Positions 13,585 to 20,670 of a DNA stretch of 64,000 nt are shown here, in pieces. The stretch comes from Oligoflexales bacterium (GTDB lineage Bacteria > Bdellovibrionota_B > Oligoflexia > Oligoflexales > JAPPIL01): contig OZ244057.1 of assembly GCA_965215515.1 (NCBI GenBank), positions 544,001-608,000 of the forward strand, read 5' to 3'. The notes below the pieces were generated by a model. The model searched no databases, was not told the DNA's origin, and worked only from the letters and a program-made list of their open reading frames with translations. Each line of letters opens with the position of its first letter. The first letter of the stretch is position 1. Made by a program: the position numbers and the translations under genes.

Positions 13585-15231
13585 TTAAACATCGGACAGC
13601 ATATCACGCATCGCTCGTCCTGAGGGATCAGCTTTGGTTGCGAAACGCTGATCCCACTCCAAAGCCGCGGCTGACGAGCAGGCGATGCTTTTTTCGTGAG
13701 GTACACAGTCGAGAGTGTGTGTGGCGAAAGATTGTGCGTAAAGCTGACGATAGAGGTATTCTTCTTTGGTGCGAGGGGTTTTGCGGGGAAAATCTTGCGC
13801 ACGAGCGGCGAACTGCTGATCGTTTATCTCTTTCTCCGCATGTGCTTGCAAAGCATCTATCCAGCGATAGCCGACCCCATCGGAAAACTGCTCTTTCTGT
13901 CGCCACACGATGGCATGCGGCAGGTAAGCGGCGAAAGCCTGACGCAAGACATGTTTCTCCATACGTGTGCCGCGGGGCATTTTTATCTGAGGCTGCATGT
14001 TCATGGCACGATTGAGAAAATCAATATCGAGAAACGGGACACGTGCCTCCACTCCCCACGCTGCCATCGCTTTGTTAACACGCAGACAGTCGTAGCGATG
14101 CAGTGCTTTAATCTTGCGCAGTATCTCGCGCTGAAACTCCTGCTCGTTAGGGGCACGGTGAAAATACAGATAACCGCCGAACACTTCATCCGCTCCTTCA
14201 CCCGACAACACCATCTTGATCCCCATCGCTTTGATCTTACGTGCCAACAAATACATCGGCACGGACGCACGCACCGTCGTGATGTCAAACGTTTCGATGT
14301 GGTAGATGACATCGGCAAGTGCATCCAAACCTTCCTGCTCCGTAAAGGTAAAGGCATGGTGAGCAGTGCCGATATGCTCTGCCACCACCTGTGCGGCCGC
14401 AAGATCAGGAGCGTCAGGCAAACCGATGGTGAACGAGTGCAGGCGTGGCCACCACGCCGCGCTGCCATCTTCAACCCGTTGGGCGGCAAAACGTGCGGCG
14501 ATAGCGGCGATAAGCGACGAGTCCACCCCCCCAGAGATGAGCAGACCGAAAGGTACATCACACATCAACTGGCGGTGCACCGCTTCCTCCAGGGCAAGAC
14601 GCATACGTTTGGGAGTGGTGTACCTTTGCGGCAAGGAAAAATCGCGCTGCAGCCAGCCTGGCCTGAACCAACGCTGTAGTTTACCATCGAGCAGTGCGTG
14701 CCCTGGGGGAAATTCCCACACCCTCGTGCAGACATCGGTGATCGCCTTCAACTCGGAGGCGACGAAGAGGTTATGCTCACAGTCACGTCCGTAGTAAAGC
14801 GGCACAACCCCGATCGCATCTCTGGCCACGAGATAACTGTGGCGATGGCGATCGTAAAGTACGAAAGCAAAGATACCATTCAGGGCGCGCAGAAAATCAA
14901 CTCCCTGCTCTTCGTAAAGATACATCAAGATCTCGCAATCGGAGGAGGTCTTGAAGTTGTGCTGTCTGCTCAAAAAGCCGCGCAGCTCGCGGTGATTGTA
15001 AATCTCGCCGTTGACGCAGAGTACCTTGCCACTGTCGCTCTGTAACGGCTGTGCACCGCTCTCGACATCGACGATCGCCAAGCGTTCATGTGCCAACACC
15101 GCTCGCTCGTCCGCATAAATCCCGCTCCAATCAGGGCCGCGATGACGCAGACGACGGGCAAGCTGCAAGGCGCGTGTCCGCAAATCACGCGGGCTACGGG
15201 TTATTTCGAGAATTGCCACTACCGCACACAT
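13585..15231 (-). CDS. asnB: asparagine synthase B (glutamine-hydrolysing)
   Basis: Start set at MCAVV (Ntn Cys2); HRGPD, SGGVDSS, SGEGADE and RQKEQFSDGVG motifs. Confidence 0.95.
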   Translation of the reverse strand: MCAVVAILEITRSPRDLRTRALQLARRLRHRGPDWSGIYADERAVLAHERLAIVDVESGAQPLQSDSGKVLCVNGEIYNHRELRGFLSRQHNFKTSSDCEILMYLYEEQGVDFLRALNGIFAFVLYDRHRHSYLVARDAIGVVPLYYGRDCEHNLFVASELKAITDVCTRVWEFPPGHALLDGKLQRWFRPGWLQRDFSLPQRYTTPKRMRLALEEAVHRQLMCDVPFGLLISGGVDSSLIAAIAARFAAQRVEDGSAAWWPRLHSFTIGLPDAPDLAAAQVVAEHIGTAHHAFTFTEQEGLDALADVIYHIETFDITTVRASVPMYLLARKIKAMGIKMVLSGEGADEVFGGYLYFHRAPNEQEFQREILRKIKALHRYDCLRVNKAMAAWGVEARVPFLDIDFLNRAMNMQPQIKMPRGTRMEKHVLRQAFAAYLPHAIVWRQKEQFSDGVGYRWIDALQAHAEKEINDQQFAARAQDFPRKTPRTKEEYLYRQLYAQSFATHTLDCVPHEKSIACSSAAALEWDQRFATKADPSGRAMRDMLSDV

Positions 15232-15289
15232 ACCCGAAAAGGGTATGATACAATTTGGGTTTCTGCGAGTTATTTTTAAAGGTCGCGCG

Positions 15290-15886
15290 GTGAAAAACAT
15301 CGCCATCTACTATCGTGTGTCGACCGAACGGCAGGATTTGCGTAGCCAAACAGAGGCAATCGAGAGCTGGCTAGCCAAGCGAGACCAACAACCCCAGAAG
15401 GTTTACACTTTCAAGGACACGGGCTATTCAGGCAGCCACCAAAACCGCCCTGCTTACCGTGACCTGATGAAGCTTGCCATCAACGGACGCATCGACACCA
15501 TCGTTGTCTACCGCCTCGACCGTTTTAGCCGCAGTGCCAGCAACGCTATCCGCACCTTGTTGGAACTCGACGACTACGGTGTAGCGTTCGTCAGTGTCAC
15601 GCAGCCTGTACTGAGTCTCGGTCACGACAATCCCTTTCGGCGCACGATGCTCGCGGCTTTCGCCGAGATCGCGGAGATAGAGCGCGACACCATCGTCGCA
15701 CGTGTTAAGTCAGGCTTGCAAGCAGCCCGCAAACGCGGCATTAAGCTCGGTCGTCCCTCGAAAGGCACCGCCGAGCTCCTAGCCCGCGTGCGTTCCCTGC
15801 GTCGGCAAGGGCTATCATACCGCGCCATTGCCGCACGCGTGCAGCTGAGCAAAGGCAAAGTGCACAACATGCTCAACCAGCGATAG
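15290..15886 (+). CDS. small serine recombinase (resolvase/invertase) with C-terminal HTH
   Basis: YYRVST, DTGYSG..RP, RLDRFSRS and E.ER..I..R...G..LGRP motifs; probable GTG start at 15290. Confidence 0.92.
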   Translation: MKNIAIYYRVSTERQDLRSQTEAIESWLAKRDQQPQKVYTFKDTGYSGSHQNRPAYRDLMKLAINGRIDTIVVYRLDRFSRSASNAIRTLLELDDYGVAFVSVTQPVLSLGHDNPFRRTMLAAFAEIAEIERDTIVARVKSGLQAARKRGIKLGRPSKGTAELLARVRSLRRQGLSYRAIAARVQLSKGKVHNMLNQR

Positions 15887-16040
15887 TGATAAGTAAGCAC
15901 CACCGTTAGGCTAACACGAGCAGCACATCACCCTCCATCCCGCGTGTCAGCAAACAAAAGCTTGCATTTCTGTCTTAGCTGTGTTACGCGCCGCAGCGAT
16001 ACTTGCTGCAGGAAATTTGTTTTTGTTACTGGAGGGATCG

Positions 16041-19016
16041 ATGCAGTTTCTAATTGTGTTGGCAGTGCTGACTGTGAGCAGTACGGCTCTGTGCCGCAAC
16101 GTGCAGTTGCCTAGAGGCGTGGCGGGCAAGGTGCATCTGTTGCATCGTCTGATTATGGCGGGGGAGCAGACGGAGCTGGTACGTTTGCTGTCGCAGCTGC
16201 AACGACATGTCAACGACGGTGACCATGAAGGGCATACGCCGCTGCACTGGGCTGTCTATGCAGACGACCTCGACAGCGCAAAATCTCTGCTGAAGTACAA
16301 AGCTGATCCCAATATCGCGGATAAATACGGGCGCACAGCGCTACACGAGGCAGCACGGGTGGGCAGCAACGAGATGCTCAACCTCCTGATAGACAGTGGC
16401 GGTGATCCTGAAGCACCTGACGAACAGTACGGCTGGGATGCCCTCTTCTGGGCGGCGTACTCGGGCACTAAGGAGTCGCTGCAAACGTTGATAGAGCGGG
16501 TCGGTTCGCAGCACGAGAAGACGGGTGAGAAGACGGGTGGTGCCGACATTTACGCTGTCGTCTTGCAACAAGACGATCCCAGTAAAATGTCGGGCGAGGA
16601 CAACGACAAGATAGCCAAGGTGGAGCTGTTGCTGGCTGCGGGGGTTGTGCCCGACATCGGCGTGGCGATGATGCTAGTCCCGTTGGAAAAGATGACATCG
16701 CTAGCTGCAGTGTTCAATGCTCACGCGGGTGAGGTAGAGTTCAACACTTCTAATATCAATGGCATAGATCCAAGGAACTGGAAGACCTTGCTGATGAAGG
16801 CGATGGCGGCAGGAAGTGTTCCCGCCGCGGAGTTTTTGCTCCGTCAGGGGGCGGACCCCCATGCGGTCGACGGGAAAGGCCGTCATGTCCTCATCTCCGA
16901 CTACCAGAAGGGCGCACAGCTGGAGATAGCGAAGCTCTTGCTCGAACATGGGGTCGAAGTGCAGAACGCAGGTGTCGAGGCAGCCTTCTACGCAGCTCTG
17001 AGGCACGATGACGTGGAACTAGCAGAATTGCTGTTGGCGAAGGTGACAGAAGATGGCGAAAACCCCGTGCCCGATGCATGGGTCATTTTTCGCGGCGTAC
17101 CTAACGTGGGCTTAGCACCCGCGATACAGTTAGCGAAGAGTGAGGAGATGCAGGAGCTGTTGCTGCTGTACGGTCTGGGCGAGCAAGACAGACTGAATGC
17201 GATCGTGCGCACCCTCGAACAGAGAGTTAAACAAAAACAGGGCGGTAGCGTTACACGAGAAACGGCGCGCTCCGTGCCTGATTTTCTGATAGACTTCAAC
17301 GCCCTCGCCGCGGCGGGCAAGTTTAAGCCCGTCATCGGCCGCGAACGGGAAATACAACAGGTGATCACGGCGCTGGCCCGCAAGGAGAAAAACAACCCGC
17401 TGCTGGTCGGGGAGGCTGGTGTCGGCAAGACCGCCATCGTCGAAGGCCTGACGCAGCGTATCGTCGCGGGAGACGTGCCCCCTATCATGCGCGACAAGAC
17501 CGTCTACGCCCTAGACATGGGTTTATTGCTCGCCGACAACATGCATCGCGGTCAGCTCGAAGCTGTCATCACCGAAGAGCTGTTACCTTTCATCGCCGAA
17601 AACGAGAGTAATGCCATTCTTTTCGTCGATGAGATCCATCAGCTCATCAGTTCAGCGGCGGCACGGGGGATCGCGGACTTGTTGAAACCTGCCCTGGCGC
17701 GGGGGGACATACACTGCATCGGTGCGACGACGCAGGACGATTATCAGCAACACATTATGCTGGACAGTGCGTTAGAGAGACGTTTCTTCCCTGTCACCGT
17801 CGCCGAGCCGTCGGTCGCAGACACGATCGCTATCGTCAGCGGCTTGAAGAGGGTGTATGAACAGCACCACGGCATTACCATCAGCGACAGTGCCGTACAG
17901 GGTGCGGTAAAACTTGCTGACCAGTATATCACTAACCGCTACCATCCCGACAAAGCCATCGATCTGATCGACATGGCGGCGGCAAAAGTCGTGGTCAATG
18001 AAGGCAAAGATCTGCAATTTTTACAGGTAGCTGAAGTCGTCGCCGACGTGACGGGCGTGGCGGTGGAACGCATCTTGATCCGTCCCCAGGATAAGGTTGA
18101 CCGACTGTTGCCTTTTATGCAGCGACGTATCTTTGGACAGGACGAGGGATTGGAAGAAATCGCCAGATACCTTTCCCCTTTTCTCATGGGGGTCGGCGAT
18201 CAGGACAGACCTGCGTCGCTGTTGCTGCTGGGGCCGACTGGAGTTGGCAAGACAGAAACGGCAAAGGTGCTGGCGGAACATTTTTTCGGAGCAGATGACA
18301 ACCTGATCAACATCAACCTCAGCGAATACCGCGAGAGACACGATGTCGCGAGTCTGATCGGTGCTCCCTCAGGTTACATCGGCTACGAACAAGGTGGTAT
18401 TCTGACCGAAGCCGTGCGCCGTAAACCCTTCTCGGTGGTGTTGTTCGATGAAATAGGCGAGGCACACCCAGATTTTGCTGGCATTCTGTTAAAAATTCTC
18501 GATGAGGGTGAGCTTACCGACAAGAGAGGACGTACGACCAATTTTAGAAACACCATTATCGTCATCACAGGCAACACCGAGACCAGCAAAAGCCGTGGCA
18601 GTGTCGGTTTCAAAGCGGGGACGGAACAGGCATCCCCCAGTGGCGTGAGTGCGAGCCAAGTCCCGATACAGGCCAAATTGCAAGGGCGTTTAGGAAAAAT
18701 TATCACCTACGCTTCCTTGCCAGCAGAAGTGATGGGGAGACTGATCAGCAAAGAACTCGCCCGTTTCAATGCCCAACTGGCACAAAAAAACATCTCTATA
18801 TCGCTCACCGCTACCTTGCGTAAACATTTGCGTGAACGGGGTTATAAACCTGAACTGGGAGCGAGGTCACTGCAAAACATGCTTGTGGAGTTGGTGGAAA
18901 GTCCGCTGTCAGCTAAGCTTGCCACCGGTGAATTGCAAGAAAATCGCCACTACCGTATCGGCATCAGAAACGGCAAGATAACGATTAAGGAACAACCCGC
19001 AACACGTCAAAAATAA
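16041..19016 (+). CDS. signal peptide + ankyrin repeats fused to a two-domain ClpA/ClpC-type AAA+ ATPase
   Basis: SD ggaggg then MQFLIVLAVLTVSSTALC; ankyrin GHTPLHWA and GRTALHEA; D1 KNNPLLVGEAGVGKT/FVDE; D2 GPTGVGKT/LFDE; APSGYIGY pore loop. Confidence 0.9.
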   Translation: MQFLIVLAVLTVSSTALCRNVQLPRGVAGKVHLLHRLIMAGEQTELVRLLSQLQRHVNDGDHEGHTPLHWAVYADDLDSAKSLLKYKADPNIADKYGRTALHEAARVGSNEMLNLLIDSGGDPEAPDEQYGWDALFWAAYSGTKESLQTLIERVGSQHEKTGEKTGGADIYAVVLQQDDPSKMSGEDNDKIAKVELLLAAGVVPDIGVAMMLVPLEKMTSLAAVFNAHAGEVEFNTSNINGIDPRNWKTLLMKAMAAGSVPAAEFLLRQGADPHAVDGKGRHVLISDYQKGAQLEIAKLLLEHGVEVQNAGVEAAFYAALRHDDVELAELLLAKVTEDGENPVPDAWVIFRGVPNVGLAPAIQLAKSEEMQELLLLYGLGEQDRLNAIVRTLEQRVKQKQGGSVTRETARSVPDFLIDFNALAAAGKFKPVIGREREIQQVITALARKEKNNPLLVGEAGVGKTAIVEGLTQRIVAGDVPPIMRDKTVYALDMGLLLADNMHRGQLEAVITEELLPFIAENESNAILFVDEIHQLISSAAARGIADLLKPALARGDIHCIGATTQDDYQQHIMLDSALERRFFPVTVAEPSVADTIAIVSGLKRVYEQHHGITISDSAVQGAVKLADQYITNRYHPDKAIDLIDMAAAKVVVNEGKDLQFLQVAEVVADVTGVAVERILIRPQDKVDRLLPFMQRRIFGQDEGLEEIARYLSPFLMGVGDQDRPASLLLLGPTGVGKTETAKVLAEHFFGADDNLININLSEYRERHDVASLIGAPSGYIGYEQGGILTEAVRRKPFSVVLFDEIGEAHPDFAGILLKILDEGELTDKRGRTTNFRNTIIVITGNTETSKSRGSVGFKAGTEQASPSGVSASQVPIQAKLQGRLGKIITYASLPAEVMGRLISKELARFNAQLAQKNISISLTATLRKHLRERGYKPELGARSLQNMLVELVESPLSAKLATGELQENRHYRIGIRNGKITIKEQPATRQK

Positions 19017-19062
19017 AAACTCAGTGGCTACCACACCGCTTGTGCTGCACAATTAGCAAAAA

Positions 19063-20670
19063 TTGTGGGTGCAAACGATGTGGTTTGCTCTTTGGACAGG
19101 AGGCTTTCTCGCTGGCTGGTTGCTGGCTAGGGTCGGGCAGTTTGACTTCTTGTCGTGGTCATGGTTGGCCTTTTTGCTGGCGTTGCTGCTGTTGCCGCGG
19201 GCGCGCCATGCCTGGCTGTGGGCGGCTGTCGGTCTTTGTTTCGGCAGTTACCACAGTGCACCCTTCCCCAGCCAACCCCTCGCAGCTGTGCGCAGTGTAC
19301 AGCATAATCCCTTGCAATTTTTTTACAGCCCCACCATCGCCACCACCAGCACCCAGGCACGCTGGCAGGTAAGGAGCTATCCACACAGTCAGGGTAGCGT
19401 GCCTGAAAGCGCAGGGAAACAACCCCACTTCATCTTCCCCCGCCCGCCACATTTGCGTGCGGAGCTAGCAAGCGGCGAACAAGCCAGGCGGAGCGCAGCG
19501 GAGCTAACAAGCGGCGAACAAGCCAGGCGGAGCGCAGCGGAGCTAGCAAGCGGCGAACAAGCCAGGCGGAGCGCAGCGGAGCTAACAAGCGGCGAACAAG
19601 CCAGGCGGAGCGCAGCGGAGCTAACAAGCGGCGAACAAGCCAGGCGGAGCGCAGCGGAGCTAACAAGCGGCGAACAAGCCAGGCGGAGCGCAGCGGAGCT
19701 AGCAAGCGGCGAACAAGCCAGGCGTGCCTCGCCTCCACCGCTCGTGCACACGATGCGCCGCTATCTTTTGCGCCAAGCTGACAACCTATGCGAGCCAGTA
19801 CACAGCTGGATTGTCAGCATCACGCTGGGCAAACGCAAGGACATGCCACACCCCTGGCGGGAGGCGTTTCGTCTGCTCGGTTTGTTTCACGTTCTGGTAA
19901 TCAGCGGGTTGCACATCACCATCATCGCGATGGGAGGTAAAAAACTGCTCGACCTTACCCTGCGTTCCCTCTACGTCGTGCGTCTGTTGACTCCTAACAG
20001 TTGGCTGCTGCTGACCAAACTGGCCAGTCTGTTGAGTTGCCTGCTGATTCTGTTTTACGGTTGTCTGGTCGGTTTCTCCGCCCCCGCACAACGTGCAGTG
20101 CTGTTGTTCCTCGCCCACCAAGGTTGTGCCCTAGGGGAACATCACGTTTCCCTGACGGAGAAGATCAAGCTGGTGTTCTTCTTGCAGATGTTGCTTTTTC
20201 CCATCGGGTTCTTATCCGACTCGTTGCTGCTCAGCTGGGGGGCTTACCTCATCGTGCTGCACTGTTTTCGAGAAGTGAAGCATGCACAGTCGTGTGGCGG
20301 CAAGCTTGCCGCCACGCTGCGTTCCCAGTTGCTCATCACGGCTCTTATTCTGTGTTTTTTCAGGGAGTTGAGTGTCTTGTCGATTCCGCTCAACATCTTG
20401 CTACTGCCTTTCATCCCCTATCTGGTGATGAGCGGGTTTCTGTTGCTGTTGTTGCCTGCGAGTACACCTCTCGCGGGGTGGATCGAGTACTCGCACCTGT
20501 TCTTTCTGCAACAAATTGCCCGTCTCGCTGAAATAGCCTCTACTTACAGCTGGTTAATCATCGACCTGCACGATAGCCCTCCTCTGCGGGTCGGTCTGTT
20601 CGTCATTTTGATCCTTATGGTCTTAAGGAGAAGCATGTTTGTGACGAAAAGGGATGCGGGGCGAAGTTAG
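19063..20670 (+). CDS. comEC: ComEC/Rec2 competence domain protein
   Basis: GLFHVLVISGLHI and GFSAPAQRA motifs with multiple TM segments; no metallo-beta-lactamase domain. Confidence 0.82.
   Translation: MWVQTMWFALWTGGFLAGWLLARVGQFDFLSWSWLAFLLALLLLPRARHAWLWAAVGLCFGSYHSAPFPSQPLAAVRSVQHNPLQFFYSPTIATTSTQARWQVRSYPHSQGSVPESAGKQPHFIFPRPPHLRAELASGEQARRSAAELTSGEQARRSAAELASGEQARRSAAELTSGEQARRSAAELTSGEQARRSAAELTSGEQARRSAAELASGEQARRASPPPLVHTMRRYLLRQADNLCEPVHSWIVSITLGKRKDMPHPWREAFRLLGLFHVLVISGLHITIIAMGGKKLLDLTLRSLYVVRLLTPNSWLLLTKLASLLSCLLILFYGCLVGFSAPAQRAVLLFLAHQGCALGEHHVSLTEKIKLVFFLQMLLFPIGFLSDSLLLSWGAYLIVLHCFREVKHAQSCGGKLAATLRSQLLITALILCFFRELSVLSIPLNILLLPFIPYLVMSGFLLLLLPASTPLAGWIEYSHLFFLQQIARLAEIASTYSWLIIDLHDSPPLRVGLFVILILMVLRRSMFVTKRDAGRS
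19459..19724. repeat. 39-bp in-frame tandem repeat (6 full + 1 partial) inside comEC
   Basis: Unit gcggagcta(g/a)caagcggcgaacaagccaggcggagcgca encodes AEL(A/T)SGEQARRSA. Confidence 0.95.

Follow-up and report, generated by a model that had tools for sequence, protein, structure and literature searches.

The 64,000-nucleotide window analysed here, from contig OZ244057.1 of an Oligoflexales bacterium (assembly GCA_965215515.1), carries a gene for a 991-amino-acid protein (P0001) in which a predicted export leader and a region of ankyrin repeats precede the two AAA+ rings of a Clp/Hsp100 ATPase (Table 1). The source genome (G000; 2.18 Mb, completeness 94%) was compared with three other genomes of the same bacterial family, f1 (G001-G003). 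An alternative in-frame GTG lies at 15981, upstream of the ATG, which was kept as the start because the orthologues begin at the leader and the G002 frame is open for only 7 codons upstream. Contigs of two of the four sequencing runs (X2 and X3, from a single study) span window positions 15000-19488 with zero differences; the other two runs, X5 and X6, covered the gene in short pieces only and were excluded from this check. These spanning contigs and 13 orthologues at 39-65% identity rule out a chance fusion and also the mis-assembly that the preliminary description of this DNA had named as a possible undoing of its reading. Within the reach of these analyses, none of the three objections raised there came true.

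Pfam assigned residues 54-155 of P0001 to Ank, 454-581 to AAA, 591-658 to AAA_lid_9, 725-885 to AAA_2 and 893-973 to ClpB_D2-small, with a weak ANK match at 248-341, and a Clp N-domain was not among the best 25 of 31 matching families. In the AlphaFold model (mean predicted local distance difference test score, pLDDT, 76) confidence is low for residues 1-29, residues 30-376 fold into helix pairs, and two Clp-like modules follow behind a loose linker; the top Foldseek matches of the model were ClpC, ClpB and ClpA. Canonical repeats occupy about residues 30-158 and degenerate helix pairs follow. The replacement of the Clp N-domain by ankyrins, already proposed in the preliminary description, agrees with the missing Clp_N match; the length given there, about 390 residues, is to be shortened to about 350.

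All 14 aligned proteins retain, in both rings, the residues of Walker A/B, sensors and Arg fingers, with a single T-to-S exchange in the D2 Walker A motif. The middle domain is absent, as only 53 residues separate the D1 lid from the start of D2 compared to 156-157 in two short ClpBs and one protein of a related subfamily (D, below). The VGF columns hold [IVL] in 14/14 proteins, G in 13/14 and F/Y in 14/14, with a column identity of 0.83 compared to 0.46 and 0.48 in the flanks. The intact Walker motifs, the lack of a middle coiled coil and a VGF tripeptide at the ClpP-docking loop had all been claimed from the single sequence and stand in the alignment, whereas the degenerate D1 pore loop was overlooked there: P0001 has His502 at a site that is Tyr in three and Tyr or Phe in seven of the 14 proteins. 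By its domains and motifs P0001 is a two-ring class I Hsp100 with a lid, a D2-small domain and complete catalytic motifs.

Table 1. Positions of the features discussed (window coordinates unless a locus or genome is given)
Feature	Position	Strand	Basis
Whole gene, P0001, 991 aa	16041..19016	+	13 full-length homologues
Shine-Dalgarno-like GGAGGGA, 5' of ATG	16029..16035	+	purine-rich tract at the equivalent spot in 6/6 homologous starts printed
Predicted cleavable Sec/signal peptidase I leader, residues 1-18, ending A-L-C	16041..16094	+	hydrophobicity; cleavage site by eye
Ankyrin-repeat region, residues 30-378 (~350 aa), in place of Clp N-domain	16128..17174	+	Pfam; AlphaFold helix pairs, pLDDT mostly 75-94
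Variable low-confidence linker, residues 379-412	17175..17276	+	column identity 0.37 over 381-412; pLDDT <50 at 396-410
AAA+ ring 1 (D1); Walker A/B, sensor 1, Arg fingers intact	17277..17996	+	Pfam, alignment
D1 pore loop, degenerate, variable; His502 in P0001	17532..17552	+	alignment of 14 proteins
AAA+ ring 2 (D2) and small domain; catalytic motifs intact	18093..18959	+	Pfam, alignment
D2 pore loop GYIG; Tyr779 invariant, 14/14	18372..18383	+	alignment
VGF tripeptide, residues 855-857, at ClpP-docking (IGF/LGF) loop position	18603..18611	+	alignment; weak complex-model support (G002 orthologue and G002 ClpP3)
Operon of giant J-protein, 885-aa protein and leader-bearing DnaK	L089:3446-11885 (G000:C1:506442-514884); L120-L124		
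Small J-protein with leader, no predicted membrane helix	L121:515-1987	+	
Small J-protein: leader, linker, hydrophobic segment, J-domain	G000:C1:1373298-1373840	+	
ClpP3 with leader (G002 and G003)	L180:1492-2184; L181:1375-2061	-; +	Ser/His/Asp motifs intact
Tandem-signal proteins, G000:C1	2077798-2079429 (L130); 503515-504723 (L089:516-1691); 1955447-1956571 (L132); 659691-660644 (L002:318-1268)		layout kept in f1
Subfamily B gene of G003, split into two frames	L071:1510-4357	+	
508-aa frame resembling the ankyrin region	L021 (G002:C1:815551-816516)	-	
Serine resolvase	15245-15886	+	
ComEC-like protein	19063-20670	+	
Example of C-terminal W-G motif	G000:C1:1950189-1951610 (L087)		
Lipoprotein with ankyrin, dockerin-like and FlgD Ig domains	L088:1330-3006	-	

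Family and origin of the ankyrin-Clp protein

The Ank + AAA + AAA_2 architecture was found not to be peculiar to P0001. Each protein-collection search scored its 8,000 best candidates, and among the best 120 matches of the 7,999 candidates scored for P0001, 14 full-length proteins (P0001 included) combined the ankyrin region with both AAA domains at 97-100% query coverage and 39-65% identity; the remaining 106 were ordinary Clps, with at most 60% of P0001 covered. Each of the three other f1 genomes encodes an orthologue as well as further leader-bearing Hsp100s, and four subfamilies were distinguished, A (the P0001 group) to D. Subfamily B has an ankyrin region but neither a D2 pore loop nor an IGF loop; C has a small non-ankyrin N-domain and is otherwise B-like, again lacking the D2 pore loop and IGF; D has an ankyrin region and a remnant of the middle (M) domain, with no IGF. 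The missing D2 pore loops of B and C, together with the degenerate D1 pore loop of P0001, would suit AAA+ rings that make no use of ATP hydrolysis and act as a passive scaffold on which an ankyrin adhesin or immune modulator is secreted. Against such idle rings, which we consider highly improbable, stand the nucleotide-handling residues kept in all 14 aligned proteins and the Walker A/B motifs of both rings, present in full-length members of B, C and D barring pattern misses.

Separate quick trees of D1 and D2 (no bootstrap; L071 dropped from the D2 tree) united subfamilies A-D with the short cytoplasmic ClpB of other families and of Bacteriovorax (SH-like approximate likelihood ratio support 99 and 96). 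In an approximately unbiased (AU) test on 31 rows a clade of subfamily A with ClpA was rejected (p-AU 0.004), and with it a ClpA origin of P0001; a single origin of A-D was not rejected (p 0.51). Phylogenetically the ATPase core derives from a ClpB-type paralogue, sister to the cytoplasmic short ClpB. No cytoplasmic ClpB was found among the accounted matches in any of the four f1 genomes (completeness 86-94%).

A mid-ankyrin marker region matched 4/131 genomes of the phylum-level group, all of them f1. In a search of 1.84 billion representative sequences with the ankyrin region (no profile), long ankyrin proteins dominated and one of the best 150 matches was a family member, and a genome-contig search gave six loci, all unrelated ankyrins. 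Two frames of the family are incomplete: the subfamily B gene of G003 (L071) is split near the D2 Walker A motif, and P0290 stops at a similar place. The 508-aa frame of G002 (L021) has a 36% match to the ankyrin region over 84-379 and is too short for both ATPase rings. Outside f1, two ClpA-like proteins of family f8 (L054 and L055; frames of 1102 and 884 aa) carry long acidic low-complexity insertions behind the N-domain.

P0001 shares two AAA+ rings, a lid and a D2-small domain with the class I Hsp100/Clp proteins (ClpA, ClpB, ClpC, ClpI, ClpG/K, ClpV) and differs from them in its export leader, the ankyrins in place of the Clp N-domain, the lack of an M-domain and the degenerate D1 pore loop. 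It scored below every NCBIfam cut-off (ClpB 586 of 1232, ClpA 554 of 993, ClpV 527 of 885). ClpB has a long M-domain and no IGF loop, and P0001 is the opposite on both counts. ClpA and ClpC have in common with it an IGF/LGF-type loop and the lack of a DnaK-binding M-domain, and a ClpA/ClpC-like mode of working is predicted; however, ClpA has a Clp N-domain and ClpC a Clp N-domain and a short M-domain, neither of which is present in P0001, and G000 encodes a separate ClpA and a separate ClpC-like protein, besides ClpX and two leaderless ClpPs. The VGF motif is described as belonging to ClpC (PMC7685784), and ClpI, like A-D, comprises subfamilies with and without the loop (PMC10149685). ClpV/TssH goes with a type VI secretion system (T6SS) locus and a sheath partner, whereas G000 gave no VipB match and the neighbours of P0001 are unrelated.

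The closest likeness in layout is to Skd3 (human CLPB), which also has a targeting leader, an ankyrin domain, a ClpB-type AAA+ domain and no M-domain, has a GYVG pore loop and works outside the cytosol (PMC7343390). Skd3 has a single AAA+ ring, and a ClpP-docking role is not stated in the accessible part of that source; P0001 has two rings and VGF. The Skd3 comparison was made by profile scores, the trees being built from other sequences: the ankyrin-Clp family profile gave Skd3 about 231 bits compared to 346 bits for a bacterial ClpB D2 fragment. With two rings in P0001 and a score for Skd3 below that of bacterial ClpB D2, orthology is unsupported and the two ankyrin-Hsp100s are most likely separate fusions. 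Going by architecture, trees and profile scores, P0001 belongs to none of ClpA, ClpC, ClpB, ClpV and Skd3. Plasmodium HSP101 (ClpB2), a eukaryotic protein with a signal peptide, has retained both N- and M-domains and has PTEX150/EXP2 as its docking site, whereas P0001 has an IGF-type loop. HSP101 serves PTEX, the translocon for exported proteins in Plasmodium, as a ClpB-class two-ring unfoldase reused for export at the host interface, with D2 pore loops that grip cargo (PMC7355975).

Leader-bearing partners and second signals

The Sec-like leader with a good Shine-Dalgarno sequence, as first described, agrees in part with the sequences: a GGAGG tract precedes the start, and a hydrophobic core with a small-residue end was recognised in all 14 members of subfamily A (hydrophobicity scale and eye), while the n-region of P0001 has no basic residue and the mature start is basic. 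A lipoprotein (signal peptidase II) reading of P0001 was ruled out, since T-A-L-C is not a lipobox (consensus L-A/S-G/A-C; PMC9360617) and G or A replaces the Cys in 3/14. A hydrophobic leader was present in 37 of the 41 Hsp100s of the four subfamilies compared to none of 121 ordinary Clps (A 14/14, B 7/8, C 7/7, D 9/12; three of the four misses look N-truncated and one scores 1.85), and the leader sequences differ among the four subfamilies.

Leaders were also found on other proteostasis proteins of f1. Extra Hsp70/DnaK copies carried one in 6/6 cases from f1 compared to 0/4 from other families, and none was seen in the housekeeping DnaKs printed. In G000 the leader-bearing second DnaK lies behind two further proteins with leaders, a J-protein of 1,249 aa and a protein of 885 aa, and a duplication of this operon is present in G001 and G002. 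Ahead of its J-domain, the giant J-protein is predicted to have one membrane helix. Its 885-aa neighbour was confined to 4/131 genomes, those of f1, gave no usable ESM Atlas match and was modelled by AlphaFold at a pLDDT of only 52. Two small J-proteins with leaders are listed in Table 1, as is a third ClpP (ClpP3) with a leader, found in G002 and G003, whose cluster in the protein collection has four members. A metagenome search with ClpP3 gave 80 loci at 55-66% identity, none reaching the leader. A leader-bearing isoform of ClpP1 in G000 and G001 was considered and rejected, as the open stretch upstream, 28-30 codons long, holds no convincing leader. A crude ClpP leader score was set aside; it flagged L178, two of 78 ordinary ClpPs (where the windows extended into the mature start) and, of the two ClpP3s, only one. 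On these predicted leaders, P0001 belongs to a set of proteostasis machines with leaders that is specific to this lineage.

Coupling to ClpP was modelled for the G002 orthologue pair. The D2 of this orthologue, placed in a complex with three G002 ClpP3 subunits, scored 0.50, which is weak support, while the best of three controls scored 0.00; in calibration 116 of 157 solved and two of 215 mismatched pairs attained the mark, but only 18 of the 157, and both mismatches, did so at 0.60 or under. The runs shared at least 77% of contacts, with a partner pLDDT of at least 72. Resemblance to solved ClpAP/ClpCP complexes may account for this score.

Some exported proteins of G000 have a leader, a basic linker and then a second signal, often a lipobox. 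In a solute-binding protein of G000 and eight homologous ORFs (open reading frames) of G001-G003 the second signal ends in a lipobox, while four more distant homologues (two from f1, two from other families) have one signal each; in relatives the tandem layout recurs in a barrel-like protein and in an S66 peptidase (all by eye). After repeated pilin ORFs had been removed here and from the mature-charge count given below, a crude scan of G000 flagged 20 of 208 leader-bearing compared to 0 of 69 lipoprotein-like ORFs. The simplest explanation of a second bacterial signal is that the protein next sits in a bacterial cytoplasm, where it would meet Sec and Lgt from the inside.

The leader-bearing set could instead serve the cell that makes it, exported into its own periplasm or an adjoining ATP-holding space, where it would either form an ATP-dependent chaperone/protease network or drive proteins through a PTEX-like translocon as its pushing motor. 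The set is complete for this (Hsp100, ClpP, DnaK and J-proteins), two large leader-bearing proteins specific to the lineage are encoded in the DnaK operon, the IGF loop is missing from subfamilies B-D, and in HSP101 the ClpB class already offers a motor by which cargo is threaded through a pore (PMC7355975). However, the periplasm is described as free of ATP (PMC7685784), gene neighbours differ in 3/3 genomes with no pore gene alongside, and the second signals are left unaccounted for. A TLC nucleotide carrier gave no match, in a search that was silent in every control genome as well. We regard this location as improbable.

Predicted site of action

Bacterial Clp/Hsp100, ClpP and DnaK are regarded as cytoplasmic because the periplasm is said to hold no ATP (PMC7685784). 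Leaders on all three, with catalytic residues kept, therefore imply either an ATP-holding extracytoplasmic space or machinery delivered into another cell, and among bacteria either would be a novelty within the literature searched: the listings of full-text searches, which leave most subscription journals outside, showed no bacterial signal-peptide or ankyrin Hsp100 and no exported ClpP/DnaK set. The pattern suggests that the f1 relatives send a whole protein-unfolding kit beyond their own cytoplasm, possibly into another cell. On balance we favour, by a modest degree of confidence, an exported ClpP-coupled unfoldase whose site of action is a foreign compartment with ATP, the likeliest being a second bacterium's cytoplasm.

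P0001 would be exported by Sec, with removal of the 18-residue leader, and would leave the maker cell by a candidate type II secretion system (T2SS), of which G000 has a cluster with gspD, E, F, G, K and an L-like gene. Its next step would be entry into a compartment with ATP, most likely the cytoplasm of a different bacterium, and the leader-bearing DnaK and J-proteins of the lineage, along with two large partner proteins, may assist in this. There it would assemble into a hexamer whose ankyrin region picks the substrate, whose D2 threads it and whose VGF loop hands it to ClpP. If ankyrins choose the substrate, this would account for the decay of the D1 pore loop and for the missing DnaK-binding M-domain. 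G000 would rely on the ClpP of the target cell, and in G002 and G003 a co-exported ClpP3 is possible. The exported unfoldase of the preliminary description thus gains from the conserved leader and from the leaders that the same lineage puts on ClpP, DnaK and J-proteins, export itself being predicted only; the foreign ClpP proposed with it fits G000, which has no leader-bearing ClpP, but not so readily two of the three relatives, which encode their own ClpP3.

A fuller version, which we put forward only tentatively, is an organelle-style protein import into another bacterium. After exit by Sec and T2SS, a lineage-specific channel with an exported DnaK/J motor would carry cargo across the target inner membrane; the cargo (ankyrin-Clp unfoldases, ClpP3) would act in the target cytoplasm or be re-exported by the target's Sec/Lgt via its second signal, and the ankyrin-Clp would be a programmable degrader that aims ClpP at chosen target-cell proteins. 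Organellar import motors work from the far side of the membrane on cargo with basic leaders, as chloroplast ClpC/Hsp93 with cpHsp70 and mitochondrial Hsp70 with Pam18. The f1 set has Hsp100, Hsp70 and a membrane J-protein in common with them; its parts are all bacterial, with Sec-type leaders, and the likeness is one of analogy.

Several observations weigh against export into a foreign cell. Over the first 20 residues of the mature protein the net charge is positive in 35 of 36 family members compared to 49% of 208 leader-bearing G000 ORFs (cleavage sites by eye; P0005, which has a late start call, P0285, P0290, P0297 and P0299 were left out of this set and of the insertion-scale set). A basic mature start impedes Sec export in E. 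coli and is compatible with a reverse membrane anchor. P0001 has no basic residue ahead of its hydrophobic stretch, and its spacer from leader to first repeat is about 11 residues compared to the 20-45-residue linker of the tandem-signal proteins. An insertion scale rates the leaders as poor anchors (2.6-6.0 in subfamily A, 5.1-9.3 in DnaK), but seven anchor controls ranged from -4.6 to 7.2 and overlap with them. ClpP3 was absent from G000 by tblastn and none was found in G001. The tandem-signal scan was weak, with 12/160 compared to 5/160 in a position-control window. Flagellar/type III secretion system (T3SS), T6SS and VirB4 markers were not found in G000 (94% complete), which leaves no known injection route. 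Because the carriers are kin, all those with a known genome being of one family, the co-occurrence of leaders on Hsp100, ClpP and DnaK counts as one evolutionary event, though it spans several unrelated proteins.

The charge pattern could mark a transit-type feature or a reverse anchor that keeps the ATPase inside. In the latter case the leader would be an uncleaved N-out/C-in anchor, or a non-translocated tag, and the ATPase would sit at the cytoplasmic face of the maker's inner membrane with ClpP1/ClpP2, as a quality-control or envelope-assembly motor in place of ClpB. The basic mature N-termini and the missing basic n-region of P0001 are what this would predict, the cytoplasm holds ATP and two ClpPs, no cytoplasmic ClpB is among the matches in the four f1 genomes, and the helix of the giant J-protein, if it lies in the maker's own membrane, would place the J-domain inside. 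Nevertheless we judge it unlikely: the leaders of the unrelated Clp, ClpP, DnaK and J-proteins have short hydrophobic cores with small-residue -3/-1 motifs, the DnaK leaders hold Asp/Gln and score 5-9 as anchors, leader-bearing proteins of G000 that resemble ordinary periplasmic ones share +4 mature starts, and the first leader of the tandem-signal lipoproteins would be left without evident use.

Basic, acid-poor mature N-termini would also suit secretion into a eukaryotic host, with action in the mitochondrial matrix or cytosol on host ATP and mitochondrial ClpP. Mitochondria are not known to have Lgt/LspA, and the lipobox second signals indicate a bacterial target; most members of subfamily A, moreover, have an acidic residue within their first 10 mature residues. 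The genome is 2.18 Mb with 21 ankyrin ORFs and no flagellar export marker, R-x-Y/F motifs occur in subfamily C, and the matrix disaggregase Hsp78 is described as missing from animals (PMC7343390); all of these would fit a host, which we nonetheless hold to be very unlikely as the destination. Reduced, ankyrin-rich Bdellovibrionota have been described in a sponge (PMC9944714).

If delivery into another bacterium is true, the system would be categorically new. It opens to test how relatives of predatory bacteria put enzymes into another cell's cytoplasm, offers a second, probably independent ankyrin-Hsp100 fusion to set against human Skd3, and would be a natural design of a substrate-selecting degrader.

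Gene neighbourhood and other observations

A conserved operon around P0001 was dismissed, since its neighbours differ in all three genomes compared. The serine resolvase immediately 5' of the gene was not found beside the orthologues. The ComEC-like protein downstream contains about seven copies of a 14-residue repeat at about 19430-19740, where the short-read contigs break. A C-terminal T/P/R-W-G-x-L/I-K motif occurs in 15 ORFs of G000:C1, mostly ankyrin lipoproteins, compared to three internal matches, and presumably resembles a motif of Poribacteria. One lipoprotein combines ankyrin, dockerin-like and FlgD Ig domains. SecA, SecY, GroEL and FtsH each came up once in motif scans. From about 36000 to 64000 of the window the GC content drops from about 0.55 to 0.40-0.50, in the manner of a mobile island.

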